DNA of 35,868 nucleotides from an uncultured Erysipelotrichaceae bacterium (GTDB taxonomy: Bacteria > Bacillota_I > Bacilli_A > RF39 > UBA660), in assembly GCA_902795725.1 (NCBI GenBank), contig CADBLY010000021.1, forward strand, positions 1 to 35,868, in the 5' to 3' direction. A program made the translations under genes and the position numbers. Below are positions 1,795 to 25,668 of this stretch, piece by piece; positions within the stretch are counted from its first letter, which is position 1, and every line of letters starts with the position of its first letter. The notes beneath the pieces were generated by a model, which did no database searches, was not told the DNA's origin, and saw only the letters and a program-made list of their open reading frames with translations.

Positions 1795-4587
1795 ATGAAA
1801 AAGTACTTATCATTTGCTTTGTTGATTGTTTTATCACTACTTTTATTATTTTATCAATGTGAAAAAGTCAAAGCAAATAAAACTAAGTTTAAAGATTTTA
1901 AAACCGATATAAAAAAAGCCAATGATATAAGTATATCGGACAATCAATTATTTAGTAATAGAACAAGTCAACAATTGTTTTTCACACTGCAAACAGTAGA
2001 ATATGATGGATCAACAGTAGCGGCTTTTTGTAGCCATTGGTTGTCTGTGACACCTATAAAAGACAGTAAGCTATGCTTGTATACTTGGAATTCTGAAAAT
2101 ATAAGTGCTGGAGTAGGAGCAATTATAAATGAATTTCGTAAATGTAAGGGAAATTCTTCTGTAAATTCTAATTTATATAAACAATGCTATTTTCTAGCAT
2201 CAGTTGGTATTCATAGTTTTTTAGAAAAACATGGAAATGATAAAACACCATCAAATGCTACAGGACTACTTATTGAATCAGGTGATATTAAAGGTCATGG
2301 CTATAAACACTTCTATAATGTAGGAGAAGCTGCATATCAAAGTCACTCAAAAAGTTTTAATTTAAGTGTTGAAAGGACACAATATAAAAAAACAGATGAT
2401 AATGGCTCTACTAAATACTCTACTAAATTAACTACTGATGCAAATGATTTAGTAAGCGTTCAATATAAGATTTCTAAGACAAAAAATGTAAGAAATGCCG
2501 AATGTAATGGCGATATTTGTTATGGAACACTAATTGATCCAACACAAGATGGAGAAATTAAAGTTAAAGTAGAAGCAAAAAGAAAAAGATACTATTATGC
2601 AGCTAAATATTATGTTACTCAAAACCAAAGTTGTAGTGATATTGTTATATCAGGTGTTCAACCATTAATTCCAAATAAAATAACATCTGACCAGGAAACT
2701 AAAACAAAGAATATAACGCTTACCCTACCAGCTACTAAAGTTAGTAGTACACTTACAGTTAAAGTTAAAGGAACTAAATGCTGTTTAAGCGAAGGAGCTG
2801 AAAAATTATCTAAAGCTGAAGTGACCATATCTAAAGATAATAAGAAAAAGACAACAAACAGTGATGGGCATGCAACTTTTACTGATTTATATTTTGGTGA
2901 TAATTATACAATAACTGTTACTAAAAAAGATTATAAAACAAAACAAAAGAATATAACGATTAATAAAAGGAGTCAAACAGTAACTATAATTCTCAATAAA
3001 ACCGAACAAGCTTGTGCTTTAGATACACAAACTTGTTCAGATAAGAAAACATGTAATAGTGCCTTAAAAGAATATGAAAATAATTATCAATCACTATATG
3101 ATAAAATATCATCAGGCGAAATAGAGAATGATTGTACAGATAATGATTGTAGTGCTTTATTAGATGAAAATAAAAATGCTATAAACTATGGTAGCTGTGA
3201 AAAAGCAAATTATCTAGATTCTTGTGAAACAGAATTAGAAAACATTCAAAAGAACAATACAAATACTAATGATTTAGAATATCAATATAATTTACAACAG
3301 CTATATAAAAAATATAATAAATCAGAATTGTTAAATTATTCTAATCCATCTTGTAGTACTTTTAAAAAAGAAGTTGATGCAAGTTGCCAATATACGGAAA
3401 TAATAAGTCCATATAAAGAAGCACATAATATAACTTATCAAGGTGATTCTAATATAAAACCTATATGCAAGTATATATATCGATTAAAAACTCCAAATCT
3501 AGAAAAAGAAAATACCTTAAAAAATGGAATGTTATTATGGTCTAATCAAAATAGTAATGATGTTGGAAATCTAACTGTTGTTGAAGATTGTACTTATATT
3601 TCCAAAAATACAGATTCTATTCAAACATCCAATTTTGTATTAAATGAAGGATACAATTTAAATTGGATTCCATCAATAAATTTAAATTATATATATGAAA
3701 ATGGAAAACAATTGGATAAATCAAAAGATATAACTGTTTCATTAAATGGTATATTAAAGTCTGGGCAACCTTCGATAATATATGGTACAAACACTAAAGA
3801 CAATGGGACATATACTAAACACCATATAATTGCAGCCACTGAATTAGAATACAAATACCCTAAAGAAATATATGCATATATTAACTCTGGAACTATAACC
3901 TATAAAAAAGATTGTAAAAACTGTATTAAATTAGGCTATGGTATTCCAATACCACTGAACATCCAATCAGGAAACTATCAAAAAAGTGGTTTTAATATCG
4001 ATATTGGAGATAAAGAATCAGTTAGTCAAACTTGTGACTATAATATAATAAACGAAGGCTACAATACTCGGATTATTGATCCACAACACCCTTTTGGAAA
4101 AAGGGAACATACAGGAAATAATTGGTGCTATTTTTGGGATGATAATACAAATAATTCAACTAATGATAATACTTTTGAAACTGTAGAAAATAGTGAAGAT
4201 GTTGTAAGTGATAATGCTTTAGAATCATCAACAGATATTATAACAGAACATATAAATAAGGATTTAAGTATTGATAATAGATGTACTACTAAAAGTGAAA
4301 TAAATAAAAACATCAAAAACAATATTGTTGATAAACCTAATTCTTCAACAACTAATAACAATGATATAATGTATAGTTTTACTCTCACACCAACTATTAT
4401 AAAAGAAATAAGATCTTATAATACAACAAAAACATATGAAGATTATTCTAGTATAAATTGTAATAAAGAAGGACAAAACTGTATAAGCTCTTTTATCACT
4501 CAACAATTTAGTAAGTTAAAAAGCAGTGGTTATTGTAAAAATAATCGTGATATTTTATGCAATTACAATAATAGAAATAAAAACTAG
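1795..4587 (+). CDS. Large secreted Cys-rich protein with a CarboxypepD_reg/Cna-B-like beta-sandwich segment; candidate adhesin or pilus-associated protein
   Basis: Signal peptide MKKYLSFALLIVLSLLLLFYQC. The segment AEVTISKDNKKKTTNSDGHATFTDLYFGDNYTITVTKKDYK matches the DG..F..L..G.Y.(I/V) pattern of the beta-sandwich. Many Cys residues, no LPXTG motif and no C-terminal TM. Confidence 0.4.
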   Translation: MKKYLSFALLIVLSLLLLFYQCEKVKANKTKFKDFKTDIKKANDISISDNQLFSNRTSQQLFFTLQTVEYDGSTVAAFCSHWLSVTPIKDSKLCLYTWNSENISAGVGAIINEFRKCKGNSSVNSNLYKQCYFLASVGIHSFLEKHGNDKTPSNATGLLIESGDIKGHGYKHFYNVGEAAYQSHSKSFNLSVERTQYKKTDDNGSTKYSTKLTTDANDLVSVQYKISKTKNVRNAECNGDICYGTLIDPTQDGEIKVKVEAKRKRYYYAAKYYVTQNQSCSDIVISGVQPLIPNKITSDQETKTKNITLTLPATKVSSTLTVKVKGTKCCLSEGAEKLSKAEVTISKDNKKKTTNSDGHATFTDLYFGDNYTITVTKKDYKTKQKNITINKRSQTVTIILNKTEQACALDTQTCSDKKTCNSALKEYENNYQSLYDKISSGEIENDCTDNDCSALLDENKNAINYGSCEKANYLDSCETELENIQKNNTNTNDLEYQYNLQQLYKKYNKSELLNYSNPSCSTFKKEVDASCQYTEIISPYKEAHNITYQGDSNIKPICKYIYRLKTPNLEKENTLKNGMLLWSNQNSNDVGNLTVVEDCTYISKNTDSIQTSNFVLNEGYNLNWIPSINLNYIYENGKQLDKSKDITVSLNGILKSGQPSIIYGTNTKDNGTYTKHHIIAATELEYKYPKEIYAYINSGTITYKKDCKNCIKLGYGIPIPLNIQSGNYQKSGFNIDIGDKESVSQTCDYNIINEGYNTRIIDPQHPFGKREHTGNNWCYFWDDNTNNSTNDNTFETVENSEDVVSDNALESSTDIITEHINKDLSIDNRCTTKSEINKNIKNNIVDKPNSSTTNNNDIMYSFTLTPTIIKEIRSYNTTKTYEDYSSINCNKEGQNCISSFITQQFSKLKSSGYCKNNRDILCNYNNRNKN

Positions 4588-4599
4588 GAGGTAGATAAC

Positions 4600-4992
4600 T
4601 TGAAAGAATCAATCTGGGGATATATGGTTATTTTAATGGGAGTACTTGCCATTATAGTTATTTACTTCTTTCAAAATGTAACAAATACAGAAGAAAATAA
4701 CTATACTTTGATAAAAGAAGCAACAGAAGCAGCAATGTATGATTCAATAGATATGGCAACTTATCGTAAATCAGGAGAAATAAGAATAGTTCAAGAAAAA
4801 TTTGTTGAAAACTTCTTAAGAAGATTTGCTGATAATGCATCTCTTGCTCATACTTATAAAATCGACATAGTAGATGTTAATGAAACTCCACCGAAAGTTA
4901 GTTTAAAAATATCAACATCAGATGATACAGTAGAAGGAGTAACCTTTACCATTGCCGATAAAATAGATGCTATTATAGAAAGTAAAAATTGA
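4600..4992 (+). CDS. Small pseudopilin-like membrane protein (short polar leader ending in Gly, then a hydrophobic helix)
   Basis: TTG start 8 nt after AGGAGG. N-terminus MKESIWG-YMVILMGVLAIIVIYFF followed by a ~100 aa soluble domain. Sits at the head of the Tad gene set. Confidence 0.35.
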   Translation: MKESIWGYMVILMGVLAIIVIYFFQNVTNTEENNYTLIKEATEAAMYDSIDMATYRKSGEIRIVQEKFVENFLRRFADNASLAHTYKIDIVDVNETPPKVSLKISTSDDTVEGVTFTIADKIDAIIESKN

Positions 4993-5005: not shown

Positions 5006-5809
5006 ATGAATAATATTTTGGTTAGTTTAAGAAAAATAATAAGAAATAAAAATACCGTAACAATAATCGGTATAATATTGATACTAGTACTATTGTACTT
5101 TGGTTATACTAAAACTGTAAATAGTACAATAAATCCAATAAGTGTACCTGTTGCCAAACAGTCAATTGGTGAAAGACATGAAATTGGTGCTGATGACATT
5201 ACTTATAAAAGTGTTGCTGCAATAACAGTAGGAGATAACGTTATAAGAAATTCATCTGAATTAATTGGTAAATATACCAATTTAAATGTAACTATACCAG
5301 AAGGTAGTATGTTCTACACAGATTGGATAGTTGAAAAAGATAAAATCCCAGGAAATTGGATTGAAGAGATAGATACAAAAAATGGTTATGAAGCCTATTA
5401 TTTAAGTACTGATGTTACCAAAACATTAGGAAATAGTATTATCCCGGGATCAACAATTGATTTATATATGATGACAACAATAAATGGTCAATTAGTATAT
5501 GGCCGATTATTAGAAAATATTGAGGTGTTGGTTGTACATGATGGAAGTGGTAATGATGTGTTTGCTAATGCATCAAATCCAAGTTCTCCAAGTAAAATAG
5601 GTTTTGCAGTAAGTCATGAATACTATGTCTTACTAACAAAAGCCGAAAACTTAAGTGGAATTACTTTAGTAATTGCGCCACAAGGTTCCAACGTTGAACT
5701 ATCTGGTCAAGTAAATGTTAGTAGTGCCACTTTAAGAGACTATATCGATGCTAATACTGTAAACCTAACTGATGAAGTATCTGCATCTACTACAGAAGAG
5801 AATCAATAA
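5006..5809 (+). CDS. cpaB: CpaB/RcpC-like Flp pilus assembly protein (N-terminal TM plus SAF-like domain)
   Basis: N-terminal TM TVTIIGIILILVLLYFGY. Then VPVAKQSIGERHEIGADDITYKSV....SELIGKYTNLNVTIPEGSMF, which follows the SAF/CpaB pattern. Lies immediately upstream of the TadA-like ATPase. Confidence 0.55.
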   Translation: MNNILVSLRKIIRNKNTVTIIGIILILVLLYFGYTKTVNSTINPISVPVAKQSIGERHEIGADDITYKSVAAITVGDNVIRNSSELIGKYTNLNVTIPEGSMFYTDWIVEKDKIPGNWIEEIDTKNGYEAYYLSTDVTKTLGNSIIPGSTIDLYMMTTINGQLVYGRLLENIEVLVVHDGSGNDVFANASNPSSPSKIGFAVSHEYYVLLTKAENLSGITLVIAPQGSNVELSGQVNVSSATLRDYIDANTVNLTDEVSASTTEENQ

Positions 5810-5810
5810 T

Positions 5811-6902
5811 ATGGATAATATTTTTGATGAATTGGACTTTGGTCCATTAAAGCAGTATTTAGACAACGATGATGTAACCGATATCTCATATGACAATGGG
5901 GGTCAACTTTGGTTAAAAACTTTATCTCATGGAATATTTAGAGTAAATAATCCACGAGTAAACAATGCATTAATAGAAAAATTAGCTTTTCAGTGTTCTA
6001 ATATTGTTGGAAAGAGTTTCAATGCCGCACATCCTTTTCTAGATAGTGAAAGTTCTGAACTACGTATGAACTTTGTTCATGATTCAATTGCCCGTAATGG
6101 TATAGCATGCGTAATTAGAAAAACACCAGCAAAGATTAGATTAAAAAAAGATAAAATTATCGCTGAAAAATATATTACTGAAGATATCCATGATTTTTTA
6201 ATTAAATGTGTACATGGACATTGTAATATTATGGTTAGTGGTGAAACCGGGTCAGGAAAAACAGAATTTATCAAATATCTTGCCTCAAACACAAATGCTG
6301 ATGAAAAAATAATCACTATTGAAGATACCTTAGAACTACACCTAGATAAAATCTTTCCAGAACGTGATATAGTAACAATGAAAACAAATAATATTGCATC
6401 ATACTCTGATGTCTTAGTAACTTGTATGAGACAGAATCCTAAATGGATATTACTATCTGAAGTACGTTCAGCAGAAGCCGTTCTAGCAGTTAGAAATTCT
6501 ATTTCATCAGGCCACTATATATTATCAACAATTCATGCTGACAAAGCATCATCCATTCCTAATCGTATGTATAGTTTATTAGAAACTAACCAAGATATTG
6601 AACAATTTCTAACAAGTATTTATAGATACATTCAATTAGGTGTACATATTAGAGGATACCAAGATAAACAAACAAAAAGGTTTATAAGAGAAATAGCTGA
6701 AGTAACAGAATTTTATGTTACTGAAGATAATGAACCAAAAAACAATACAATTTACAAAAAAACACCAGATGGTAAAGTAACCAAGAATCCGCCTTCCAAG
6801 TATTTATATGAATATCTAGAAGGCCAAGGCATTATCTTAAATAGTGAACCAAGAATAAAGACAAATCAAACTAATCCTACACAAGGAATAGTATTTGAAT
6901 AG
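5811..6902 (+). CDS. tadA: TadA/CpaF-family secretion ATPase (a VirB11-like alternative cannot be excluded)
   Basis: Walker A VSGETGSGKTEF, ITIEDTLEL, Walker B-like ILLSEVRSAEA, and His box STIHAD. I prefer the ATG at 5811 (just after the upstream stop) over the track start at 5772, which overlaps the previous gene by 38 nt. Followed by two TadB/C-like genes. Confidence 0.75.
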   Translation: MDNIFDELDFGPLKQYLDNDDVTDISYDNGGQLWLKTLSHGIFRVNNPRVNNALIEKLAFQCSNIVGKSFNAAHPFLDSESSELRMNFVHDSIARNGIACVIRKTPAKIRLKKDKIIAEKYITEDIHDFLIKCVHGHCNIMVSGETGSGKTEFIKYLASNTNADEKIITIEDTLELHLDKIFPERDIVTMKTNNIASYSDVLVTCMRQNPKWILLSEVRSAEAVLAVRNSISSGHYILSTIHADKASSIPNRMYSLLETNQDIEQFLTSIYRYIQLGVHIRGYQDKQTKRFIREIAEVTEFYVTEDNEPKNNTIYKKTPDGKVTKNPPSKYLYEYLEGQGIILNSEPRIKTNQTNPTQGIVFE

Positions 6903-6913: not shown

Positions 6914-7816
6914 ATGATACAACTATTATTTGTACTAATCGCTTTAATTTTAATCTTCATACTCGTATATCGTAATGCCGGGGATAAAAATATTTATCAA
7001 TATTTAAAAAATAACTATGAAGTAGTGTTTGATAAAATTGCCCCATATTCCTATAAACAAATAAGAAATAAAGTTAAATCATTAGGACAAGATTACTCAA
7101 CCAAAAAGTATATTGTACAAATTATTCTTTTTGGTGGAGTAGCATCAATCGGTGGATACCTTTACTTTCGAAGTATAATCGTTGCCATCCTATATGGAGT
7201 AATTGCCATTGCTTTTATACCATATTTATCTTATTTAAGATATAAAAGAATATACAGTGAATTTATTTTTGAACAAATTCAAACATATACAACAAATGTC
7301 ATAATGGAATTTGGTACAACTCAATCATTCGTAAAATCTCTAGAAGGAGTTATAGAATCAGGTGTCTTAGAAGACCCTGTAAAAAGAGATGTTGAAGAAA
7401 TGATTAGACTTTCATACGAAAATGGGACCATAGATGCTTCCTTAGAATACTTTGAAGAAAAATATGATTTTTACATTGTTAAGAATATGCATCAATTATT
7501 CTTACAAATAACTAATGAAGGAGCTAGAGATGCATCTGAATCATTAGAAAACATGTCACTAGATATAGATATGCTAGTAGAAAGTGTATATAGGGATAGG
7601 GAAGATAGAGCAGTCTTTCAAAAAAAATTCATTCGATTTGGTCTTATGTTATATGGAATGATTATGTTGGTTCAATTAATACTAGGTCAAGATACATATA
7701 AACAGTTTTTAAACCTTTGGTATGGCAAAGCTTTAATTCACTTTGTAGTCATATTAAATAGTTACTTCTTAATAAAAGGAGAAAAATATTATAATGAGAA
7801 TGTAGGTGCAGAATAA
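6914..7816 (+). CDS. tadB: TadB-like (T2SS F-family) pilus platform membrane protein
   Basis: 300 aa with an N-terminal TM, a central TM pair, a cytoplasmic helical domain and C-terminal TMs. Position directly after the ATPase matches tadA-tadB-tadC order. Confidence 0.55.
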   Translation: MIQLLFVLIALILIFILVYRNAGDKNIYQYLKNNYEVVFDKIAPYSYKQIRNKVKSLGQDYSTKKYIVQIILFGGVASIGGYLYFRSIIVAILYGVIAIAFIPYLSYLRYKRIYSEFIFEQIQTYTTNVIMEFGTTQSFVKSLEGVIESGVLEDPVKRDVEEMIRLSYENGTIDASLEYFEEKYDFYIVKNMHQLFLQITNEGARDASESLENMSLDIDMLVESVYRDREDRAVFQKKFIRFGLMLYGMIMLVQLILGQDTYKQFLNLWYGKALIHFVVILNSYFLIKGEKYYNENVGAE

Positions 7817-8619
7817 TGGTTAACTATATATTTATAGCTGTAGGCATAATAATTATATTTATCTTTATATACAATAAAGTATTTGATACCAAAAGATTTA
7901 TAAATGATTTATCACCATTCTTCTCAAAACTAGTAGAAGAAGATTACTATTTTCTATTAAAAATAAGATATGGTGAATCTGATTATGATATTAATCAACT
8001 ATTTCAATTACGAGTAAGAAATGCTATTGTAACTTTATTAATAGGCTTATTCTCCTTGTTAATACTAGGACAATTAAAAATAATATATATATTAGTTCTA
8101 ATAGCATTAGCCTTTGTAATGTATAAAATGCCATACTTTAATCTAAAAAAATACTATAAAGCAAGATTACATACAATAGATTTATTATTACCATACTATT
8201 TAAAATCACTAGAAATTTTAGTAGAACACTATACCGTACCAATTGCTCTAAGTAAAAGTATTAATACCGCACCAGATGTATTTAAAGAAGGATTAAGAAA
8301 TCTTGTCGATAAAATCGACGCAGGAGATTCAACAATTCAACCGTATATTGACTTCGCCAATGAATACCCTGTAAGAGATTCAATGCGTATGATGCGTTTA
8401 TTATACCGTTTAAGTCTTGGAAAACAAGATGAAAAACATGAACAAATCATGCAGTTTTCTAAAACTGTCTCATCTTTGCAAAATAAAGCTAGAGATATAA
8501 AATATGCTGAACGTCTAGAACATATTGAAAGACAAACCATGGTAATGCTATTTGGAACCGGTGGAGTAGTCATGGCAATACTATTCATTTCCATGACTAT
8601 ATTGATGAGTAGTTATTGA
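7816..8619 (+). CDS. tadC: TadC-like (T2SS F-family) pilus platform membrane protein
   Basis: 267 aa with similar topology to the preceding gene. A TAATG stop/start overlap at 7814-7818 suggests translational coupling. Confidence 0.55.
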   Translation: MVNYIFIAVGIIIIFIFIYNKVFDTKRFINDLSPFFSKLVEEDYYFLLKIRYGESDYDINQLFQLRVRNAIVTLLIGLFSLLILGQLKIIYILVLIALAFVMYKMPYFNLKKYYKARLHTIDLLLPYYLKSLEILVEHYTVPIALSKSINTAPDVFKEGLRNLVDKIDAGDSTIQPYIDFANEYPVRDSMRMMRLLYRLSLGKQDEKHEQIMQFSKTVSSLQNKARDIKYAERLEHIERQTMVMLFGTGGVVMAILFISMTILMSSY

Positions 8620-8644
8620 CATAATAAAAAAATAATACTATAAT
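8616..8644 (+). promoter_or_regulatory. Consensus sigmaA promoter driving the two Flp-like pilin genes
   Basis: TTGACA (8616-8621, overlapping the tadC-like TGA stop), exactly 17 nt spacer, TATAAT (8639-8644). AAAGGAGGA RBS before the ATG at 8674. Confidence 0.7.
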
Positions 8645-17015: not shown

Positions 17016-18799
17016 CAAATATAAAAACAGAAATTGCTCCAAAAGGGCTGGAGTTTAAAAGTAATGAATTTATAATTAGTGATAAATACGCTACAATTCT
17101 AAGCGTAATAAGCTATCCGCAATTTGTATATCCTGGATTTCTATCATCACTAACTAGTATGTCTGGAATTAAAATGGTAATTAAACATATTCCACTTCCG
17201 GCATCTAGTATGAGTAAAATGTTAAATAAAGAATTAGCAGATTTAAAACAGAGATATCAAGATGAAAGAGACAGAACTATTCAAGAAAGATTACGCCAAG
17301 ACTATGAATCTCTTGAACAATTTATTAGTGAACTAGCTGCAACTCAATCAAAAGTATATGATTTTCAGCTTCATATTATGATTACAGCCGATAGTAAAGA
17401 AGAACTTGATTTAAAAAAATTACAAGTTAGAAATTATCTAGAAGCTATGCAACTAAGGGCTATTCCACTTCGTTTTGAACAAGATAAAGTTTTAAAATCT
17501 ATCTTACCAATTTATGATAAGCAAGATATTGAAGATAGAATTGGAACACCAATGCCTTCTCCAACAATGGCAGCTATGTATCCATTTATCTTTGATAGTA
17601 TCAAAGATCCTGGGTTAGGAACTTTGTTGGGTGTTGACTTCTCAGGTGGTGTTATTTTATTTAATCAATTCTTATATCAAATAAAAAAAGAGAATAATCG
17701 AAATAATGCCAATATGATTATTTTAGGTACAAGTGGTAGTGGTAAAAGTACCGCTGCAAAAATCCTTCTTAGAAGCCATTTGCGTAATAACTATCAAGTA
17801 GTAGTTATTGACCCAGAAGGCGAATTAGAAGATATGGCTCGTATGTATAAAGGAGATTTTATTGACTTAGGTAAAGGTGGAGAATATGGTATGATAAATC
17901 CACTTGAAGTAGTTCTAGACGCTGACGAAGAAGAAATAAGACAAGGATTAGGATATACCGTATTAACACGTACTATTCAAACCATTAAAGCCTTCTTGAA
18001 ATACTATGATCCAACAATAACTGAAGATATTGTAAATATGTTTAGTGAAATAGTTCAAGAAACATATAAACGTTTTGGAATTGATTTTAACAGTGATTTT
18101 ACAAAATTTAGTTCAAAAGATTATCCAACATTTAAGGATGTATATGCAACCATTAGAGGTAAAATTCTAGCCATGCCAGAACAAACCAAAGAAAAAGATG
18201 TTTTAGAAGCCTTAGAACTAAAAATAAGACCACTTATTAAAGAATTAAGATTTTATTTTGATGGACATACAACTATTGATCCACAAAGTAATTTTGTAGT
18301 ATTTAATATAAGAGAAATAATGAATGCTGATAACAATATCAAAAACGCCCTATTCTTTAATATCTTAAAATTTGCTTGGGGTTTAACACTTAATTCAAGT
18401 ATAAATACCATTATGATGGTTGATGAAGCACACGTATTATTAAGTGGTGGAAATACTCTTGGAGCTGACTTTTTAGCACAAATTCAAAGACGTGCTAGAA
18501 AGTATAATACAGGAACAATTATGATAACTCAACAGCCTACTGATTTTAGTGATCCAACTGTAATTACACAAGGTAAAGCTATTTTTGACAATGCATCATA
18601 TTACTTAGTGATGGGATTAAAAAAACAAGCAGTTACTGACCTAGCTCGTTTAATAGATCTAAATGATAGTGAAATGGAAAGTATTAAACAGTATAGTCAA
18701 GGAGAAGCTTTATTTGTATGTGGAAGTAGAAGAATGCGTATCAATGTGATTGCTTCTGATGAAGAATTAGATTCCTTTGGATCAGGCGGTGGATTGTAA
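17012..18799 (+). CDS. virB4: VirB4-family T4SS ATPase (lacking the usual first ~170 aa)
   Basis: IAPKGLEF..FIISDKYATILSVISYPQFV is a VirB4 N-domain pattern. Walker A ILGTSGSGKSTAAK and Walker B IMMVDEAHVLL, plus ITQQPTDF. Confidence 0.85.
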   Translation: MTNIKTEIAPKGLEFKSNEFIISDKYATILSVISYPQFVYPGFLSSLTSMSGIKMVIKHIPLPASSMSKMLNKELADLKQRYQDERDRTIQERLRQDYESLEQFISELAATQSKVYDFQLHIMITADSKEELDLKKLQVRNYLEAMQLRAIPLRFEQDKVLKSILPIYDKQDIEDRIGTPMPSPTMAAMYPFIFDSIKDPGLGTLLGVDFSGGVILFNQFLYQIKKENNRNNANMIILGTSGSGKSTAAKILLRSHLRNNYQVVVIDPEGELEDMARMYKGDFIDLGKGGEYGMINPLEVVLDADEEEIRQGLGYTVLTRTIQTIKAFLKYYDPTITEDIVNMFSEIVQETYKRFGIDFNSDFTKFSSKDYPTFKDVYATIRGKILAMPEQTKEKDVLEALELKIRPLIKELRFYFDGHTTIDPQSNFVVFNIREIMNADNNIKNALFFNILKFAWGLTLNSSINTIMMVDEAHVLLSGGNTLGADFLAQIQRRARKYNTGTIMITQQPTDFSDPTVITQGKAIFDNASYYLVMGLKKQAVTDLARLIDLNDSEMESIKQYSQGEALFVCGSRRMRINVIASDEELDSFGSGGGL

Positions 18800-18818: not shown

Positions 18819-20771
18819 GTGAACAATAATAATTTAAATAATAGAAATAGTCAGGCAGATAGCATGCCACATAACAATATGTTGGAAAATGCACAGAATA
18901 ATACTAAAATGCGTAATGATGCCGATGTTAACAATAAAAATATTAATACCAAACCAAGAACACAAGCTTCACCTAAATCATCAAATAGTAATACAAACTA
19001 TCAAACAAAAAATAACATTAGAACACCAAATCAAATTATTAATCAAAACAAATCACATTCATCCCTAAATAATATTGGTGGTCCAGCAGGAAAAAAAATA
19101 ACAAATGGTAGTGTTATAAACAATCTTAAGAAAAATAAACTAGCTCAAGCTATCCCTGGAGTAGGACTTGCTCAACGATTATCTAGTATTAATAATAAAA
19201 GGAAAAAGTTTCTTAAACCTTTTTCTTTAAATATGACTAAAGATGAAGAAGTAAACGAAGATAATAAAGAAGAAATAGATGATAATACTGATAATGAGTC
19301 TCAAAACAAACTACCAGAAGTTATAAGTGGTAGTGTTGATTTATTCGCTAAAATAAAGAAATATAAGTGGTTTTTAATTGGCGGGTTAAGTATGTTTGGC
19401 GTAATACTTATTCTAGCACTTATAGGTTTTATTATAGGTGGATCAGCAGCTGGTGCCGGAGGGTTTTCTAGTGATGCATCAAGTACAGATTTTGGTGAGC
19501 AAGTTGAATCCCAATTTGAAAAAGGCGATGAAATTGATTTAAGTGATGAAATAAATGATACAGGTTTTATTGATGATAATTTAGAAATTGACGTTCAATT
19601 TGTAAAGAATAAATTAGATTTAAATATTGAAGATATAGCTGATTACTATGGAGTAAATGCTGCCTGTAATGGAAAAAAGAGTAAAAAATGTACAGATGGT
19701 AATGAATATCGTTTTTTTCTTAAAATGTATGATATCTATTTTCTTTATAAAAATCAATATAATGTAAAATTAGATTTACCGCTCATCATGGCTACTTTAA
19801 ACTATAAAAATACCCAAATGCCTGTTGTATTTAAAAACAACTTAAATGATTATAATAGAGAAGACTTAAATAATCAAGATTATCAAGGTAATCTTTCTTG
19901 GGAATTTGACTATAAGAACTATGAAGGATACAAATACTTAAACTCCAAAGATGATCGCTTTGATATGCAAATATTAGCTAAAAACATGGTTACTAAAAAA
20001 ATAACATATAAATGTGGAAGTGATACCAAAGAAACAAATGATATTGAAAAAAGCAATTATTCATCAAAACTAGAATGTTCAAATCCAACAGATATTTCTG
20101 AAACCTACGAATTGGATAAAAAAAAATATAATGAATTCCTACTCGAATACATTGAGCATAAATACTTTATTAAAGGTGAAGAAGTAGAAAATGTTGAAAA
20201 CAATAATACAGAAGATTCAACTACATATGAAGGATCTAGCTCTTTGGCTGATTCATTTGTTAAAGTGGCAGAAGATGAGTATAAAAAATTTAATAATGGA
20301 ATAACATCAGCTTGGACTTATCAAAGTGAAGCAAATATTGGGAATAATTTTTGGTGTGCAGCTTTTGTCAATTACGTAGCAAAAAGAAGCACATATAAAG
20401 GAAAAAGTGTTCATGATATAGTTAATCCAATCTGTGATGGTTCTGTTAGTTGTTCCATGGTACAATTTAAGGATAAATCTCATTTAAAATTTTATTTTAA
20501 CGATTCTTGTTCTCGCTTTAAAGGAAAAAATGGTAATATAACTTATAAACCCAAAAAGGGAGATTATATTTTCTTTGATTGGAATAATAGATTTTCAGGG
20601 TTAAATAGTATATATTTAGGAACCGATGATGTATCTCATATTGGAATTGTTAAATCAGTTTCCGATAATGTAGTAATGGTTATTGAAGGAAACTGTAATA
20701 ATAAAATTTGTAATGATAGTCCATATTATCTTACCGATTGTGATGTAGTTGGTTATGGGTCATGGTATTAG
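18819..20771 (+). CDS. Membrane-anchored cell-wall hydrolase with C-terminal CHAP/NlpC-P60-like domain and Asn-rich cytoplasmic N-terminus
   Basis: GTG start 8 nt after AAGGTGG. ~170 aa N/Q/S/K-rich low-complexity region, then the TM WFLIGGLSMFGVILILALIGFIIGG. C-terminal NNFWCAAFVNYV ... SHIGIV ... IEGN matches the Cys-His-polar triad pattern of CHAP/NlpC-P60. Confidence 0.55.
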   Translation: MNNNNLNNRNSQADSMPHNNMLENAQNNTKMRNDADVNNKNINTKPRTQASPKSSNSNTNYQTKNNIRTPNQIINQNKSHSSLNNIGGPAGKKITNGSVINNLKKNKLAQAIPGVGLAQRLSSINNKRKKFLKPFSLNMTKDEEVNEDNKEEIDDNTDNESQNKLPEVISGSVDLFAKIKKYKWFLIGGLSMFGVILILALIGFIIGGSAAGAGGFSSDASSTDFGEQVESQFEKGDEIDLSDEINDTGFIDDNLEIDVQFVKNKLDLNIEDIADYYGVNAACNGKKSKKCTDGNEYRFFLKMYDIYFLYKNQYNVKLDLPLIMATLNYKNTQMPVVFKNNLNDYNREDLNNQDYQGNLSWEFDYKNYEGYKYLNSKDDRFDMQILAKNMVTKKITYKCGSDTKETNDIEKSNYSSKLECSNPTDISETYELDKKKYNEFLLEYIEHKYFIKGEEVENVENNNTEDSTTYEGSSSLADSFVKVAEDEYKKFNNGITSAWTYQSEANIGNNFWCAAFVNYVAKRSTYKGKSVHDIVNPICDGSVSCSMVQFKDKSHLKFYFNDSCSRFKGKNGNITYKPKKGDYIFFDWNNRFSGLNSIYLGTDDVSHIGIVKSVSDNVVMVIEGNCNNKICNDSPYYLTDCDVVGYGSWY

Positions 20772-20779
20772 GAGAAAAT

Positions 20780-21460
20780 ATGAAAAAGATTAAATATTTA
20801 TTAATTGTTTTATTATTTATAATCAGCGGTTGCAGTGCTGAATATAATTTAACTATTTATGATGATGAAATAAAAGAGAAATTTACTTCTGTTATAAATA
20901 AAAATGAAATACCAACTTATGTTAAATCTTCTGATCCATATGCCCCTGAATTTGATGATCAATTAACACCTTTTATAGAAAATGAGCAACACCCTTTTTT
21001 AGATAATAATGATATTATTTATGATAAAGAAGTTGTTGAAGAAGATACTTATCGTCAAGTAACATATAAATATAAATATAAAAAAGAAGAATTTATTAAT
21101 TCGTATGTTATGAAATATTGTTTTGAAAATGTTCAATATGATTATCAAAATAATTATAATATAAATCTATCAGGTGCATTCTATTGCCTACGAAGTGATA
21201 GTTTAGATATAAATATTATAACAAAAAGCAAAGTTATATCTAATAATGCTGATTTTAAAAAAGGAAATACTTATACCTGGCACATTGAAAAAAAAGATGT
21301 GGATAATGTTAACATAAACATGGAAATAGAAAGAAATCATACTGTAAGAAATCTATCTAAAAATACAGGACCTATTGCTATAGTATTTATTATTCTAATT
21401 CTCATAGTATTATCTATATTATTAGTCTTAAAAAAAAGATTAAATAATAACAAAATATAA
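20780..21460 (+). CDS. Lipoprotein with additional C-terminal TM anchor (paralog A)
   Basis: I prefer the ATG at 20780 (after AGGAGA). Lipobox LFIISGC, and a C-terminal TM GPIAIVFIILILIVLSILLVL followed by KKRLNNNKI. Paralogous to 22861-23532. Confidence 0.5.
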   Translation: MKKIKYLLIVLLFIISGCSAEYNLTIYDDEIKEKFTSVINKNEIPTYVKSSDPYAPEFDDQLTPFIENEQHPFLDNNDIIYDKEVVEEDTYRQVTYKYKYKKEEFINSYVMKYCFENVQYDYQNNYNINLSGAFYCLRSDSLDINIITKSKVISNNADFKKGNTYTWHIEKKDVDNVNINMEIERNHTVRNLSKNTGPIAIVFIILILIVLSILLVLKKRLNNNKI

Positions 21461-21478
21461 AGAAAGTATGGTGGTAAA

Positions 21479-22852
21479 ATGAAGTATTATAAATATATAT
21501 TAGTTGTATTGATATCAATACTTTTTTTACCATTAACTGGACAAGCCTACGAATATATTAATTCAAAAAACAAATCAAATGTAGAACGTTATAGAACTGA
21601 TATATACCACTTAAGAGAAATGTATGAAGACTTTATTGTTGAAGAAGGAGAAACAGAAGAAAGTAATTCTTGCACAACAGTTGGAACAATTTATAAAGAA
21701 TGTAGTGGGATAACTGTAGAAGGATATGGAACCTATTCACTAGAAGAATATGTAGCCGGGGTTTTAGCAGGGGATGAAGGCTGGTCACAATACTTAGATA
21801 ATCCTACACTTCGTTATTTTATCCCAGCAATGGTAAGAACGGTGGGACTAACATCATCAAATAATTGTACTACTAGCATATCAGGTACAACTTCTGTACA
21901 AATATTTCAAGGGGATACAAAAAGCTATATTGATGTTGCAAATGAGTCGGCAGGTGTAGTTTTAGTAGACAATACTAAAAATCCATTTACACCAGGATAT
22001 TCAGTAACAGGACTAGCAGATTGTGAATCAATAAGTGACGGAATGTGTCATATAACTCGATATCATAAATGGGATTATAAAGAAACATATGAGTCAATAT
22101 ATCCAACAAGTTCCATATTAACAAGTGGTAGTATATCAGTACATCATGTGGGAGCTAATCCAAATGATATTGAATATAAAGCAAAAGAATTAAATTATAG
22201 TGCCGAACAGCTAGCTAAATATGTTTTTGGTGAAGATACTGAATATGCACAACTTGAATCTGATGGCTATTCATCAGACAATGAGAATACCAAAAAATCC
22301 AAATCATTCACTTGTGAAGGAACAGATGATGGATTATCAGTAGCATCTGCTAGTGGGTTTAAAAAAAGAACATCCCAACCAAAATCTGATAATAAGCATT
22401 ATTTTTCAAATGAAAATGCTTCATATGCAGGAGGCTTTGTTGGACAATGTACATGGTATGCATTTGGTCGAGCTAACGAAATATTAACAAATGCAAAAAG
22501 CAAATTAAAATGGACAATAGCTTCCGATGCAGGGCAATGGTATTCTGCAAATAAATCGCAGGGTACAAAAGGTTTCAAATCAACAACAGATGTTAATAAA
22601 CCAAAAGTAGGTGCAATTATTGTTTGGCAAGATGTTAATGGAGTAAGCTCTGATTGTAAAGGTTGTGGACACGTAGCCGTTGTAGAAACTGTTAATTCTA
22701 ATAAAACAATTGATATAACTGAAGCTAACATTGGATCTGTTAAGTCATCATCAAATCCATATGGTTGGCAGTATGTTTCTAATTTGAGCTTTGCTGAAGT
22801 TTCCAATAGGTGGGGATATTCATTTGCAGGATATATTTATACAGTTGAATAG
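21479..22852 (+). CDS. Secreted peptidoglycan hydrolase: SpoIID/LytB-like N-domain (tentative) plus C-terminal CHAP domain
   Basis: Signal peptide ..LPLTGQAYE. LEEYVAGVLAGDEG...IPAMVRTVGL loosely resembles the SpoIID motif. The C-terminus GQCTWYAFGRANE ... GHVAVVETV ... ITEAN is a clear CHAP pattern. Confidence 0.65.
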   Translation: MKYYKYILVVLISILFLPLTGQAYEYINSKNKSNVERYRTDIYHLREMYEDFIVEEGETEESNSCTTVGTIYKECSGITVEGYGTYSLEEYVAGVLAGDEGWSQYLDNPTLRYFIPAMVRTVGLTSSNNCTTSISGTTSVQIFQGDTKSYIDVANESAGVVLVDNTKNPFTPGYSVTGLADCESISDGMCHITRYHKWDYKETYESIYPTSSILTSGSISVHHVGANPNDIEYKAKELNYSAEQLAKYVFGEDTEYAQLESDGYSSDNENTKKSKSFTCEGTDDGLSVASASGFKKRTSQPKSDNKHYFSNENASYAGGFVGQCTWYAFGRANEILTNAKSKLKWTIASDAGQWYSANKSQGTKGFKSTTDVNKPKVGAIIVWQDVNGVSSDCKGCGHVAVVETVNSNKTIDITEANIGSVKSSSNPYGWQYVSNLSFAEVSNRWGYSFAGYIYTVE

Positions 22853-22860
22853 GTGATAAA

Positions 22861-23532
22861 ATGAAAAAAACAATTATAATATTACTATTATTAATAATAG
22901 TATCAGGTTGTAGTGCTAAATACGAAATAGAAATCAAAGATAAAAAAATAAATGAAAAATCATCATTTATTATTAATAAAAAAGAAGTTGAAAGTGATGG
23001 TATATATTATACTGTAAGCAGAATAGCAGGTAAATATTTTCTAAATGTAGATTTTTTAATAGGAGATACTAAAGAATACTATGAAAATGAAAATGCTATA
23101 TATCAAAAAAGAAATACTACTAGTATTGATGAATATAATTCATCAGATATGTTAAAATATTGCTATAGCGCACATAATGTTTTAAATGAAAAAAAATATT
23201 ACATTATATCTACTAGTAATACCTTTGAATGTTTTGAAAAGTATCAAGAATTAGATAATGTTCAAATTGTATTAAAAACTAACCATCAAGTAAAAGAAAA
23301 CAATGCAGATAAAGTTGATGGATATACCTATACTTGGAACATTAATAAAAATAATTATAATGATAAAAGAATATATATTAAACTATATAAAGATAAATAT
23401 GTTTTTAATTATGAAAATGAATTTTATAAAAAAATAGCTTTATATATAGGTGTTGGATGTGCTATAATAGGAAGCGGTTTATTTATCTATTTCAGATTAA
23501 TGAGTAAAAGAAAAAAATCTAACAAAATCTAG
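22861..23532 (+). CDS. Lipoprotein with additional C-terminal TM anchor (paralog B)
   Basis: Lipobox IIVSGC and a C-terminal TM then KRKKSNKI. Shares SGCSA(E/K)Y..(T/E)I, KYC(F/Y), and YTW.I.K motifs with 20780-21460. Confidence 0.5.
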   Translation: MKKTIIILLLLIIVSGCSAKYEIEIKDKKINEKSSFIINKKEVESDGIYYTVSRIAGKYFLNVDFLIGDTKEYYENENAIYQKRNTTSIDEYNSSDMLKYCYSAHNVLNEKKYYIISTSNTFECFEKYQELDNVQIVLKTNHQVKENNADKVDGYTYTWNINKNNYNDKRIYIKLYKDKYVFNYENEFYKKIALYIGVGCAIIGSGLFIYFRLMSKRKKSNKI

Positions 23533-23541
23533 GAGGCTAAA

Positions 23542-25668
23542 ATGAAATTACGATTTAGAGCAGAACCAAAGGATTGGACAATATTTATATCCTTTTGTAT
23601 AGCATGGTTTATTGTTGTCGCACTTGCTGTAGTAAATATACATGCCTTTATAATTGAAGAAAATTTTACCATAAATATTTTCTTAATATTTACTAGTTTT
23701 AATATGTTTGGGGTAACACTTTTAGGATTCATTGCAGGAATTGTTTTTGGACTTGTAAGTGTTAAGTCTTACTTTTTTGAAAGAGAAGCAGGTATGGGAG
23801 TAATATCAGCGGAAAAGAAAACAAAAAATTATTCTCGTTGGAGCAAAGAAAAAGAAATACAAAATGATATTGGAATGGCAAAGGTTGATCCCAAAGCACC
23901 TTCATCTGATGCTGCTGGGATACCAATTATTATGAAGCAAGATGAAGTATGGGTAGATAATGGAGAATATCATAACTTAGTAATTGGTTCTACTGGTGCT
24001 GGAAAAACGCAAACGACAGTACTTCCTATGGTTAACTTACTTGCAAAACATGATGAATCAATGATTATAACAGATCCCAAAGGCGAGATATATGAAAATT
24101 GCTCTGAATATCTAAAAAGTTTGGGATATAATATTGTATTATTAAACTTCCGTGATCCACAACAAGGTAATAGTTGGAATCCACTATACTTGCCATATTC
24201 CCTTTATAAATCAGGGAATATAGACAAGGCTGTCGAATTATTGGAAGATTTAGGAGCTAATATTATTAAAGACCCGACAGCTAAAGGTCAAGATCCTTTC
24301 TGGGAAAATACATCAGCAGATTACTTTACAGGTCTAGCATTTGCTTTATTTGAAGATGCTAAAGAAGAAGAAATCAATTTAAATAGTATTAGTTTAATGA
24401 CTACCATTGGTGAAGAAAAATTAGCCAATACTACTTATATTAAAGATTTCTTTAGTTACAAAGATCCATCAAGTACATCTTACACAAAAGCATCATCTAC
24501 ACTAATGGCTCCATCTGATACTAAAGGTTCAATCCTATCAGTTTTTAAACAAAAAATACAATTATTCGCTTCACGAGCTAATTTATCTGAAATGTTAGCA
24601 AATAATGATTTTGATATGCGTGATATCGGTAAAAAGAAAACAGCTGTTTTTATTGTTATTCAAGATGAAAAAACAACATATCATTCATTAGTAACTATAT
24701 TCTTGAAACAGTGCTACGAAACACTAATATCCGTTGCTCAAGAGCAAGGTGGAAAACTACCACATCGTACCAATTTTATTCTTGATGAATTTGCTAATAT
24801 GCCACCATTAAAAGACGTTACTACCATGGTAACTGCCGCTCGTTCAAGAAACATGCGTTTTACCTTTATTATTCAAAACTTTGCCCAATTATATGAAGTT
24901 TATGGAAAAGAAAATGGTGAAACAATTAAAGGTAACTGTGGAAATATTGTTTACTTAATTAGTACAGAATTAACTGCTTTAGAAGAGATAAGTAAAATGT
25001 GTGGAGAAGTTAAATCTAAAGAAAAAGAAAAAACATCATCTACACCATTAGTAACTGTAAGTGATTTACGTAGTATGGACCAATGGGAAACCATTATAAT
25101 TAGGCTTAGAAAAATGCCGTTTAAAACAAAGCTTACACCAAATTTTGAAATGGACTGGGGTCATAAATTTCCAAAGGCTAAGTATCCACATCGCCAAAGA
25201 AAAGAAATTGGAATATTTGATTTAAAATCATTTGTTGATAAAAAAAGAGAAGAAAAAATAAATAATATGCTAAATGGAAATGAAGGACCAAATCTACCAT
25301 TTGGTGGACGACCAGGGGCAAATCCTTTTGGTGGAAATCCATTTGGTAATAATAATCTCTTTGGTGGACCAAACCCTTTTGGACCTACCAAACCATCAAG
25401 TGATAATTTTAATGTTGATGATCTAGTAAAAAGAATAGATGCTAAAATTGCTGAATTAGAAGAAGAAGAAAAAAGGGAACAAGAAGAACAATCTAAATCA
25501 ATAAATAAACAAGAAAAAAATTCAGAAGAAAAACAAGAAGAAAAAGCCATTCAACCAACTGAATTAAACACTGATTTAAATGGCAATAATGATTCAAATC
25601 AATCAATAGACTTTAAACACAATGTTACTGATGATCAATTCTTTGATGACTTTTTTGGAGATGACTAA
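23542..25668 (+). CDS. virD4: VirD4/TraG-family type IV coupling protein
   Basis: Two N-terminal TMs. Walker A VIGSTGAGKTQT and Walker B NFILDEFANMP, plus RSRNMRFTFIIQNFAQL. C-terminal PFGG-type low-complexity repeats and an acidic/aromatic tail. Confidence 0.85.
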   Translation: MKLRFRAEPKDWTIFISFCIAWFIVVALAVVNIHAFIIEENFTINIFLIFTSFNMFGVTLLGFIAGIVFGLVSVKSYFFEREAGMGVISAEKKTKNYSRWSKEKEIQNDIGMAKVDPKAPSSDAAGIPIIMKQDEVWVDNGEYHNLVIGSTGAGKTQTTVLPMVNLLAKHDESMIITDPKGEIYENCSEYLKSLGYNIVLLNFRDPQQGNSWNPLYLPYSLYKSGNIDKAVELLEDLGANIIKDPTAKGQDPFWENTSADYFTGLAFALFEDAKEEEINLNSISLMTTIGEEKLANTTYIKDFFSYKDPSSTSYTKASSTLMAPSDTKGSILSVFKQKIQLFASRANLSEMLANNDFDMRDIGKKKTAVFIVIQDEKTTYHSLVTIFLKQCYETLISVAQEQGGKLPHRTNFILDEFANMPPLKDVTTMVTAARSRNMRFTFIIQNFAQLYEVYGKENGETIKGNCGNIVYLISTELTALEEISKMCGEVKSKEKEKTSSTPLVTVSDLRSMDQWETIIIRLRKMPFKTKLTPNFEMDWGHKFPKAKYPHRQRKEIGIFDLKSFVDKKREEKINNMLNGNEGPNLPFGGRPGANPFGGNPFGNNNLFGGPNPFGPTKPSSDNFNVDDLVKRIDAKIAELEEEEKREQEEQSKSINKQEKNSEEKQEEKAIQPTELNTDLNGNNDSNQSIDFKHNVTDDQFFDDFFGDD

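Follow-up and report, generated by a model that had tools for sequence, protein, structure and literature searches.

The 35,868-nt window analyzed here (positions 1 to 35,868 of contig CADBLY010000021.1, assembly GCA_902795725.1 of an uncultured Erysipelotrichaceae bacterium) carries a block of approximately 24 co-directional genes (1795-25668, + strand), in which two modules are arranged head-to-tail: a Tad-like type IV filament set upstream and a Gram-positive type IV secretion system (T4SS) set downstream. The block is very probably a domesticated, vertically inherited and relaxase-less T4SS combined with a Tad-like module. As its role we tentatively propose, at slightly less than even odds, a non-conjugative, Patescibacteria-like contact-dependent organelle acting from cell to cell, which would serve a reduced-genome lifestyle. 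For the description and the role taken together, we estimate a probability of about 0.55. A domesticated conjugation-derived apparatus was among the possibilities raised by the original prediction, made from the letters of this DNA, and synteny and co-divergence in more than 100 species make it the best-supported reading.

The genes of the block lie between scpA and a rhodanese gene, with overlaps of 1-4 nt or short gaps, and all genes listed in the original prediction were found where it had placed them, co-directional on the + strand and overlapping or closely spaced. The left flank is composed of a tRNA-Leu gene (226-314) beside scpB and scpA (379-1676, - strand; scpA 945-1676), and the right flank of genes for a rhodanese and guanylate kinase (gmk) (25730-26753, + strand; rhodanese 25730-26017); further flanking genes are ddl and ctpA. 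The locus is chromosomal. The window is AT-rich (approximately 27% GC), and the GC content of the block (25-32%) is similar to that of the DNA outside (23-30%), with no compositional step at the block borders. A repeat search revealed no flanking direct or att-like repeats around the block, and in searches with family hidden Markov models (HMMs) no open reading frame (ORF) of the window matched relaxase, recombinase or partition families or the A24 prepilin peptidase. The flank-like composition and the lack of border repeats, relaxase, integrase and A24 peptidase had all been anticipated correctly.

The VirB4 protein encoded by the block has more than 7000 database relatives, of which the best 120 are all 82-100% identical and originate from gut metagenomes. 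In a scan of one genome per species, VirB4 proteins of 70-93% identity were found in 176 species-level genomes, all of them uncultured metagenome-assembled genomes (MAGs) labeled as Bacilli, Tenericutes, Mollicutes or Erysipelotrichaceae and obtained from the guts of humans, ruminants, rabbits, chickens and mice; a 1.19-Mb contig is among them. Synteny was analyzed with tblastn and custom family HMMs in two sets of 80 loci, one from genomes and centered on VirB4, the other from metagenomes and centered on the ATPase of the Tad-like module. The conserved order is DUF5411-CpaB-ATPase-two membrane proteins-pilins-pseudopilins-TadZ-VirB2-like array, followed by VirB6-VirB3-VirB4N-VirB4-hydrolases/lipoproteins-VirD4-rhodanese. 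The TadZ gene is in line 5' of VirB4 in 44 of the 56 species loci with enough sequence, VirD4 is located 3' of VirB4 in 48/52 species loci, and the rhodanese gene comes next in 43/48. In eight relatives, scpAB was found 5-8 kb 5' of the Tad-like module.

The identity of VirB4 to the window protein correlates with the corresponding identity of the rhodanese in the flank (Spearman 0.92, n = 46). The median identities across relatives are 78% for the TadA ATPase and 73% for VirB4, vs. 56-57% for ScpA/ScpB and 44% for the rhodanese; pseudopilins, VirB2-like proteins, lipoproteins and hydrolases have medians of 28-47%, and the surface protein is barely alignable. Synteny, the co-divergence of VirB4 with the rhodanese and the conservation of the motors argue for vertical inheritance under purifying selection and not for a mobile element. 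No homologue of the MOBP3 relaxase was found in 162 related loci (2.3 Mb), so the search for relaxases called for in the original prediction came out in its favor for the window and these loci. Where relatives have additional ORFs within the cluster, most of these encode wall hydrolases, and IS605, ToxN and YfhO insertions are occasional.

Judged by its predicted proteins, the downstream module is a Gram-positive (MPF_FATA-type) T4SS, including VirB4, VirD4, VirB6/TrbL, VirB3/PrgI-like and VirB1-like hydrolase components. VirB4 is split into two ORFs: a stand-alone N-terminal domain (16476-17015, 179 aa; NF045975 positions 107-276, 3.6e-13), which was found in every locus and matches (E 4e-15) the ORF preceding VirB4 of the Bacillus thuringiensis plasmid pBMB67, and the C-terminal motor domain (17012-18799; AAA_10, P-loop_TraG), which matches PDB entry 4AG5 (3.2e-55) and NF045975, the VirB4 family of mycoplasma integrative and conjugative elements (ICEs) (4.7e-102). 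The VirD4-type coupling protein (23542-25668; T4SS-DNA_transf 1.6e-58) belongs to the CD1115 family (NF045973, 297 bits vs. a cutoff of 250), contains N-terminal transmembrane segments (TMs) and a low-complexity acidic/Gly-rich tail, and shares 27.6% identity with VirD4 of pBMB67 (E 1.5e-57). The VirB6/TrbL-like polytopic channel protein (13991-16162; TrbL_4 1.9e-8, 34.4 bits vs. a gathering score of 27) has a hydrophilic C-terminal extension of approximately 280 aa. The small VirB3/PrgI/TcpE-like membrane protein (16181-16498, 105 aa) was recognized at the family level, where TcpE and PrgI are each matched by 9/29 members, and the family aligns with the PrgI-family protein of pBMB67 (hhalign E 6e-5).

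A cell-wall hydrolase block (18819-22852), for which a VirB1-like function is predicted, encodes two CHAP proteins of 650 aa (18819-20771; CHAP 5.6e-6) and 457 aa (21479-22852; 4.8e-17) and, between them, a 232-aa lipoprotein with a C-terminal TM (20762-21460); relatives carry multidomain hydrolases of the M23, SpoIID, Peptidase_C39_2, NlpC/P60 or CHAP type in the same place. A second lipoprotein (22861-23532; LPAM_1), with a lipobox and a C-terminal TM, is 29% identical to its paralogue at 20762-21460 and sits 5' of VirD4 in approximately 30 relatives.

The T4SS module begins with three VirB2-like (T4SS_pilin) paralogues (11122-11619, 11534-12031 and 12045-12452; PF18895 9e-4 to 6e-3), which share 44-56% amino acid identity and a 195-nt repeat family (D1, 73-80%), and a fourth gene of this type (PF18895 1.6e-4) is located further downstream (13592-13972). 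The four VirB2-like proteins of the original prediction held at the family level, since PF18895 is matched by 36/67 family members (CagC by 2), and each single protein is below threshold. Relatives have 1-6 copies. The start of the second ORF is probably over-extended, its GTG start overlapping the first gene by 86 nt. Within the array lies a gene for a 361-aa bitopic exported protein (12454-13539) that matched no family; it is an accessory gene, present in about a third of relatives and sometimes 3' of VirD4. The remaining T4SS assignments of the original prediction were confirmed, with VirB4, VirD4, TrbL_4/VirB6 and the two CHAP proteins recognized by family HMMs and the PrgI/VirB3-like protein at the family level. 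The motifs it had quoted were likewise present in the translations: GETGSGKT/STIHA in the ATPase of the Tad-like module (5772-6902), GTSGSGKST/MMVDEAH in VirB4 and GSTGAGKTQT/FILDEFANM in VirD4.

The upstream module contains the following predicted components: (i) a large surface protein, (ii) a DUF5411 protein, (iii) a CpaB/RcpC-like protein, (iv) a hexameric secretion ATPase, (v) two polytopic membrane proteins, (vi) small pilins and pseudopilins, and (vii) a TadZ/CpaE-like protein. The first of these (1795-4587) is a secreted Cys-rich protein of 930 aa (30 Cys) with a signal peptide in the translation, a putative adhesin that yielded weak CarboxypepD_reg Ig-like matches only. Relatives have a protein of 600-1400 aa in this position, fast-evolving and alignable at the C-terminus alone, and in both pBMB67 and the Mycoplasmatota plasmid CP074574 a large surface protein likewise stands beside the Tad-like module. 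The DUF5411 protein (4600-4992; PF17424 5e-49) has the prepilin-like N-terminus MKESIWG|Y and is a candidate minor pilin; the leader MKESFWG is conserved in more than 60 relatives. A 134-aa ORF of pBMB67 in the same position has a DUF5411 match in Pfam (9e-6), the source of this link, the tblastn search of plasmids with the window protein having given no match. The CpaB/RcpC-like protein (5006-5809) is, as far as its sequence indicates, the SAF-domain component of a Tad system; its matches to RcpC (1.6e-3, 18.8 bits) and TIGR03177 (4.8e-5, 22.7 bits) are below the curated cutoffs, and it shares 29.5% identity with the SAF/RcpC protein of pBMB67 (E 3e-17).

The secretion ATPase (5772-6902; T2SSE 2e-27) likely starts at the ATG at 5811, giving 363 aa, the length called on a near-identical contig (L165). 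By sequence comparison it belongs to the CpaF/TadA-FlaI-VirB11 branch, finer placement being impossible by score alone: the best PDB match is CpaF (7e-19), followed by archaeal FlaI (4e-14) and VirB11 (3e-12), and the NCBIfam models for VirB11 (9.7e-32) and the TadA conjugal-transfer-associated ATPase (5.4e-28) are both matched below their cutoffs. That it is simply the VirB11 of the T4SS was considered and is improbable, since CpaB, the TadZ-like protein, the two membrane proteins and the pilins with their leaders are conserved along with it.

The two polytopic membrane proteins (267-300 aa), candidates for TadB-like (6914-7816) and TadC-like (7816-8619) platform proteins, are paralogues of one another (hhalign 93%, E 3.4e-7). 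The first was assigned by position and by the topology of its AlphaFold2 model (predicted local distance difference test, pLDDT, 68), and it matches the pBMB67 ORF 3' of the ATPase gene (E 1e-7), whose own T2SSF match is weak (E 0.14). The second, conserved in 84 relatives, has no family match and was assigned by its hhalign link to the TadB-like family. No T2SSF match was obtained for the pair in direct Pfam and NCBIfam scans or in PDB profile searches with two family alignments, and the AlphaFold2 model found no match in the PDB by Foldseek. A profile search of 1.84 billion representatives gave 324 matches, mostly fragments, among which 18 full-length remote homologues were without T2SSF in Pfam, and hhalign gave no significant link between the family and a T2SSF-annotated plasmid protein. 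Thus, of the Tad assignments originally made, the T2SSE ATPase and, weakly, the SAF protein were supported, and for the two TadB/C-like proteins no statistical link to T2SSF was obtained.

Two tandem genes (8674-8859 and 8877-9107) encode small pilins of 61 and 76 aa that are 54% identical paralogues (a 79% nucleotide repeat, D2), with the leader MKEAAG|EANMTVITIV, near-invariant among relatives, and Cys-containing C-termini. They had been predicted as Flp-sized pilins: two small leader-bearing pilin genes are indeed present, and they are not canonical Flp genes, as neither Pfam nor NCBIfam gave a Flp_Fap match and T and V stand in place of the E and Y at +5/+6. The pilins of the related Mycoplasmatota plasmid CP074574 keep the canonical G/XXXXEY motif (G|SPSLEY and G|GVIFEY), and for this reason the window motif looks like a derived variant. 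The next two genes (9195-10196) encode pseudopilin-like proteins of 173 and 157 aa (leaders MKQSIG|Y and NESVG|G) that match no Pfam or NCBIfam family; in approximately 100 relatives a conserved M[KR]E[SA]xG leader precedes a hydrophobic helix, and the proteins are fast-evolving (median identity 30-35%). A leader of the form M-[KR]-E-[SA]-x-(W)-G with a following hydrophobic helix is thus common to four families (the pilins, both pseudopilin groups and DUF5411); it resembles a class III (prepilin-type) signal and differs from the G/XXXXEY motif of Flp. No A24 peptidase motif of the GxGDxK type was found in any ORF of the 2.3 Mb of related loci.

The last gene of the module (10193-11113) encodes a 306-aa protein with a receiver/flavodoxin-like N-domain and a ParA/MinD-fold C-domain. 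No family was matched at the sequence level, and the assignment came from structure prediction only (AlphaFold2, pLDDT 90.6): the N-domain is modeled as a five-strand alpha/beta fold, and the C-domain matches ParA, FleN, MinD, ParF and HypB by Foldseek (E 3e-4 to 1e-3, probability 1.0). At the level of the modeled fold, the protein has the TadZ/CpaE architecture, in agreement with the pseudo-receiver/ParA protein originally proposed. Its Walker A motif is degenerate (NVTRHAGSTTLA), the Walker-A lysine being missing.

The two modules meet in a single co-directional block, as had been claimed. The stop of the TadZ-like gene is separated from the start of the first VirB2-like gene by 8 nt (11113-11122) with no predicted terminator between, and no plus-strand terminators were predicted within the block; the short gap is consistent with, and not proof of, co-transcription of pilus and T4SS genes. 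Promoter-like sites were found 5' of the pilin genes (8616-8644, + strand; sigma-70-type TTGACA-17-TATAAT, 12/12 consensus match) and 5' of the fourth VirB2-like gene and the T4SS core (13544-13573, + strand; 11/12), these calls being consensus matches only and the total of such sites not exceeding that in shuffled sequence.

The closest relatives of the block outside this lineage are found on plasmids. The nearest plasmid VirB4 homologues (<30% identity) are those of pBMB67-type plasmids of B. thuringiensis and of CP074574. The T4SS part of pBMB67 is composed of a MOBP3 relaxase, VirD4 (CD1115), a small two-helix protein, TrbL, PrgI, a homologue of the VirB4 N-domain and VirB4. Its second module encodes a large surface protein, a DUF5411-like product, a SAF/RcpC protein and two ATPases (one ParA-like, one of the T2SS/T4P family), and then has a pair of membrane ORFs and small ORFs, DUF4320 among them. 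Both modules of the block contribute to the six window proteins that have a pBMB67 match (E 1e-7 to 1e-81). On CP074574, VirB4 is accompanied by a SAF-AAA-CpaF-ORF-T2SSF series and Flp-type pilins with G/XXXXEY. For this T4SS lineage, the claim that the two machines are normally separate therefore does not stand, as the nearest plasmids, pBMB67 (MOBP3) and CP074574, carry the same paired modules.

Published elements show similar pairings. The tra region of pAW63 and pXO2 contains 'VirB11' followed by conserved hypothetical proteins (PMC1196294). The plasmids pAW63, pXO2, pBT9727 and pBMB67 resemble the window in VirD4, the two-helix protein, TrbL/VirB6, PrgI/VirB3, a separate VirB4 N-domain, VirB4 and hydrolases, and their second module resembles that of the window in the surface protein, the DUF5411-like and SAF/RcpC proteins, the ParA-like and 'VirB11'/CpaF-like ATPases, the membrane ORFs and the pilin-like ORFs (PMC1196294). 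In contrast to the window locus, they are self-transmissible plasmids with relaxase (MOBP3) and replication/partition genes; identity to the window is just 21-30%, the module order is inverted (T4SS first), and a single VirB2-like gene takes the place of the array. In publications, the Tad-like second module of such plasmids appears only as 'VirB11' plus hypothetical proteins. The island LGI1 of Listeria carries virB4, virD4, virB11 and virB6 with cpa/tad genes, and similar islands occur in clostridia and on pXO1 (PMC2834635). Judged by the published description only, LGI1 resembles the window in being located in a Gram-positive chromosome, and together with the islands of C. kluyveri, C. bolteae, D. 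hafniense and pXO1 also in virB4/virD4/virB11/virB5/6, cpa/tad genes, a P60-type hydrolase and an adhesin (PMC2834635). It differs in being horizontally acquired and strain-specific, with serine recombinases, inverted repeats and skewed GC content (PMC2834635). The original prediction named no characterized Gram-positive T4SS coupled to a Tad pilus; such couplings are already known, from LGI1/pXO1 (PMC2834635) and, under the name 'VirB11', from pAW63/pXO2 (PMC1196294), none of which has been functionally characterized. As gene content, the pairing of Tad and T4SS is not new; what is new is its status as a fixed, lineage-wide chromosomal locus.

The closest functional analogue, by analogy of gene content and distribution, is the T4SS of Patescibacteria, which is chromosomal, MPF_FATA-derived and mostly relaxase-less, with arrays of 2-11 divergent VirB2-like genes; in Southlakia epibionticum, the T4SS and type IV pili are essential for epibiotic growth (PMC12102498; PMC12857230). 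The marks of the Patescibacteria type, i.e., a lineage-wide chromosomal locus, no adjacent relaxase and a tandem VirB2-like array (1-6 genes here), were all found in the window locus. Both systems belong to monoderms with reduced genomes, contain MPF_FATA-type VirB1/3/4/6 and a type IV coupling protein (T4CP), and are accompanied by a type IV filament. Patescibacteria are a different phylum, their type IV pilus (T4P) genes are not Tad-like and have not been reported fused to the T4SS locus, and it is for their T4SS that an essential role has been shown. A 2025 review describes Patescibacteria T4SSs as unique among monoderms in having VirB2-like pilins (PMC12857230); the window locus and its plasmid relatives contradict this. 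Judging from the record labels, the 27% GC, the small genome size (1.19-Mb contig) and a spore coat gene, the lineage probably belongs to the GTDB order RF39 or a neighboring one. RF39 and neighboring orders have reduced genomes and are auxotrophic and partly spore-forming (PMC6784871, PMC10868615); a literature search found no report linking RF39 to a T4SS or Tad system.

Other systems show parts of the same arrangement. The IncI1 R64 thin pilus and the PAPI-1 ICE, the analogy drawn in the original prediction, also combine a type IV filament with a T4SS, there for mating-pair formation; they differ in being mobile elements with relaxases in diderms, in using a type IVb pilus and not the Tad branch, and in a non-homologous arrangement. 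The Ups and Ced systems of Sulfolobales, used between conspecific cells, are chromosomal and lineage-wide, comprising a type IV pilus and a VirB4/VirB6/VirB2-like machine with no relaxase; unlike the window locus, they are archaeal, UV-induced and encoded at separate loci, lack VirD4 and import DNA. The T4SS of mycoplasma ICEs (CDS5 VirD4, CDS17 VirB4; NF045975), a minimal monoderm set that mediates chromosomal transfer, provides the best-scoring named VirB4 family, and the N-terminal VirB3-like and N-domain parts of its VirB4 correspond to window genes 16181-17015. The window VirB4 scores 342 bits, below the NF045975 cutoff of 590, and mycoplasma ICEs differ further in being mobile and in having no wall hydrolases, VirB2-like genes or pilus module.

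The description given above draws on observed gene content, plasmid-module homology, synteny, co-divergence with the flanks and conservation pattern; from these we infer how the machine may assemble, capture a partner and transport a substrate, and in which direction. The block would descend from a conjugative element of Firmicutes, of the same kind as pXO2, pAW63 and pBMB67, whose transfer region already held the Tad-like and T4SS modules together. In this low-GC, small-genome lineage of gut Bacilli, the relaxase and mobility functions would have been lost and the machine kept by strong purifying selection. The CpaF/VirB11-branch ATPase, the two platform-like proteins, CpaB and the catalytically degenerate TadZ-like organizer would assemble, and perhaps also retract, a thin pilus made of the small MKEAAG-leader pilins and three minor pilins, with the large Cys-rich protein as the putative adhesin. 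This pilus would capture a partner cell, and the CHAP/M23-type hydrolases would open the peptidoglycan. VirB6, VirB3, the split VirB4 and the VirB2-like array would form the channel for translocation, perhaps together with a short T4SS pilus, and VirD4 would deliver a cytoplasmic substrate (protein or DNA) to this channel. The machine would work as the T4SS/T4P pair of Patescibacteria does, and not for propagation of a mobile element. A bolder extension, which we regard as quite unlikely, is that the abundant, auxotrophic RF39-like gut Bacilli depend on the organelle for an obligately cell-associated (epibiotic or parasitic) life, as does the Candidate Phyla Radiation, and that this Firmicute T4SS lineage, with VirB2-like genes on its plasmids, was the monoderm source of the Patescibacteria T4SS and pilin arrays.

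Several observations weigh against a Tad-T4SS organelle that is non-conjugative. On the filament side, the secretion ATPase matches VirB11 and TadA models with similar scores, no direct test placed the TadB/C-like proteins in the T2SSF family, and the pilins of the window are without the Flp G/XXXXEY signature. On the secretion side, family searches recognized no VirB8-like (NTF2-fold) component among the window proteins, the candidates (the two lipoproteins and the 361-aa protein) included, the VirD4 family takes its name from conjugative transfer, and DNA is the cargo of nearly all Gram-positive T4SSs studied so far. A relaxase, oriT or prepilin peptidase may be encoded elsewhere in the genome, the searches having covered the window and related loci. 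Finally, the modules are not adjacent in approximately 20% of species (12/56 loci have no Tad set 5' of the T4SS), 7/31 TadA loci have no T4SS genes downstream, and in one lineage (L149, L150, L152, L157 and L159; metagenome contigs of up to 217 kb) the Tad-like set occurs alone, ending at the TadZ-like gene, after which divIVA-like, rodZ-like, pgsA, recA and rny follow. Because of these loci and this lineage, the coupling of Tad and T4SS is not obligatory. The comparison of relatives suggested by the original prediction thus gave a divided answer, the junction being conserved in approximately 80% of species and the modules standing apart, and hence being separable, in the remainder.

The main rival to the lifestyle organelle, which we rate as most likely, is DNA transfer with a trans-encoded or absent relaxase: a chromosomal conjugation apparatus that serves relaxases and oriTs of mobilizable elements elsewhere, or moves chromosomal fragments between conspecifics, with the Tad-like pilus as mating-pair stabilizer. 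The ancestry in conjugative plasmids fits this explanation, as do a VirD4 above the cutoff of the CD1115 conjugal-transfer family and a VirB4 whose best named family is a mycoplasma ICE ATPase. Gram-positive T4SSs are almost all DNA translocators, R64 and PAPI-1 mate via T4P, and DNA import by Ups pili with Ced and mycoplasma chromosomal transfer provide precedents (PMC12857230); recombination would presumably also benefit reduced-genome lineages. However, no relaxase was found within 10 kb in approximately 160 related loci, and in more than 100 species the locus is conserved more strongly than its housekeeping neighbors, an unusual pattern for genes of conjugation. The precedents are also imperfect, as Ced has no T4CP and mycoplasma ICEs are mobile and patchy, unlike the window locus. 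On balance, DNA conjugation is an unlikely explanation, yet the strongest competitor of the lifestyle organelle.

It is less probable still, and in our view very unlikely, that the modules are independent neighbors, i.e., a Tad-like adhesion or twitching pilus (perhaps for DNA uptake) functionally unrelated to a T4SS remnant. The loci with one module only (12/56 and 7/31) and the Tad-only lineage speak for such independence, and Tad pili are known to act alone in adhesion. Those of Micrococcus act in DNA uptake. A role in DNA uptake has also been described for Liberibacter Tad pili (PMC8513845). Against this, the same pairing recurs in distant plasmids and islands (PMC2834635), the 8-nt gap between the TadZ-like and VirB2-like genes contains no terminator and this junction is conserved in approximately 80% of species, and both motors are equally strongly conserved.

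An ordinary recent ICE or integrated plasmid with an accessory pilus, whose relaxase and integrase would lie just outside the window, is largely refuted: although a large serine recombinase gene lies approximately 6 kb beyond the window start on contig L165, LGI1 with its T4SS and tad genes uses serine recombinases (PMC2834635) and a tRNA-Leu gene is present at 226-314, the recombinase is part of a distinct 7-kb insertion in an Amidase_3/LysM gene, whose two halves it separates (L165 11212-11508 and 18581-19504), is parted from the cluster by tRNA-Leu, scpB and scpA and is absent from relatives, and the cluster itself is syntenic with the same flanks in many species, co-diverges with them and shows no compositional shift, att repeats or relaxase. 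The serine recombinase was therefore rejected as an ICE border. The test for an ICE set out in the original prediction accordingly favored a resident locus, with no integrase, att repeats, compositional shift or patchy distribution and with the recombinase not being part of the block.

If the lifestyle organelle is confirmed, a second major group beyond Patescibacteria would keep, as a core organelle encoded on the chromosome, a T4SS that derives from conjugation and has no relaxase. Its members, common in the guts of humans and animals, are uncultured and strongly reduced in genome size, and their resistance to cultivation may come from the need for a partner cell; the locus would be a marker to follow in metatranscriptomes and imaging. 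It would also follow that Gram-positive T4SS loci can encode VirB2-like proteins and an ATPase of the VirB11/CpaF branch, contrary to the current review literature, and that the long-annotated 'VirB11' of pXO2/pAW63-type plasmids belongs to a complete Tad-like filament module. The role of type IV filaments in Gram-positive conjugation would then be testable in culturable Bacillus.

Several further features of the locus and its relatives were observed. The exported parts of the apparatus are unusually Cys-rich: besides the 30 Cys of the surface protein, the 61-76 aa pilins contain 2-4 Cys and the VirB2-like proteins 4-6 Cys each, with a conserved C-terminal CxxCF, vs. 0.2-0.8% Cys in the cytoplasmic motors, which suggests extracellular disulfides in an anaerobe. 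The single-domain rhodanese gene (25730-26017) follows VirD4 even where other flanking genes differ, and may be co-transcribed with the T4SS. Most relatives (L098:2707-5042; L085, L091, L106, L113-L138) have two extra genes between scpA and the surface protein gene, both absent from the window; these encode a protein of approximately 530 aa with N-terminal TMs and one of approximately 220 aa with a signal peptide and a C-terminal TM, with no Pfam match. In relatives, the gap that separates the second platform-like gene from the pilins, just 5' of the strong promoter-like site, is a hotspot for insertions (L137:11287-12438; L091:10986-14218; L095:10915-13359), occupied by IS605 TnpB, an amine-oxidase-like gene or genes for YfhO-like membrane proteins. 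A second partial T4SS locus was found in L050, L053, L066, L069, L059 and L064 (the last two from the same MAG), composed of 4-7 VirB2-like genes, VirB6, VirB3, the VirB4 N-domain and VirB4, with no VirD4 and no nearby Tad-like genes.

The insertion on the near-identical 50-kb contig (L165:11212-19504) carries genes for a 554-aa large serine recombinase and a 550-aa leucine-rich repeat (LRR) protein with LQELNLPxLxxCG repeats, together with small helix-turn-helix genes; the LRR ORF had no phage, plasmid or PDB match. This insertion resembles the gene-intervening elements of spore-formers, and the window contig ends right at its edge. A CotZ-like spore coat gene (2.1e-15) is located at 28351-28797 in the window, in a genome that is otherwise 'Tenericutes-like', and the organism probably forms spores. 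Among the records L010-L082, several MAGs with this Bacilli locus were deposited as 'uncultured Muribaculaceae' or 'Candidatus Scybalousia' (a Bacteroidales genus), and are probably mislabeled or chimeric bins.

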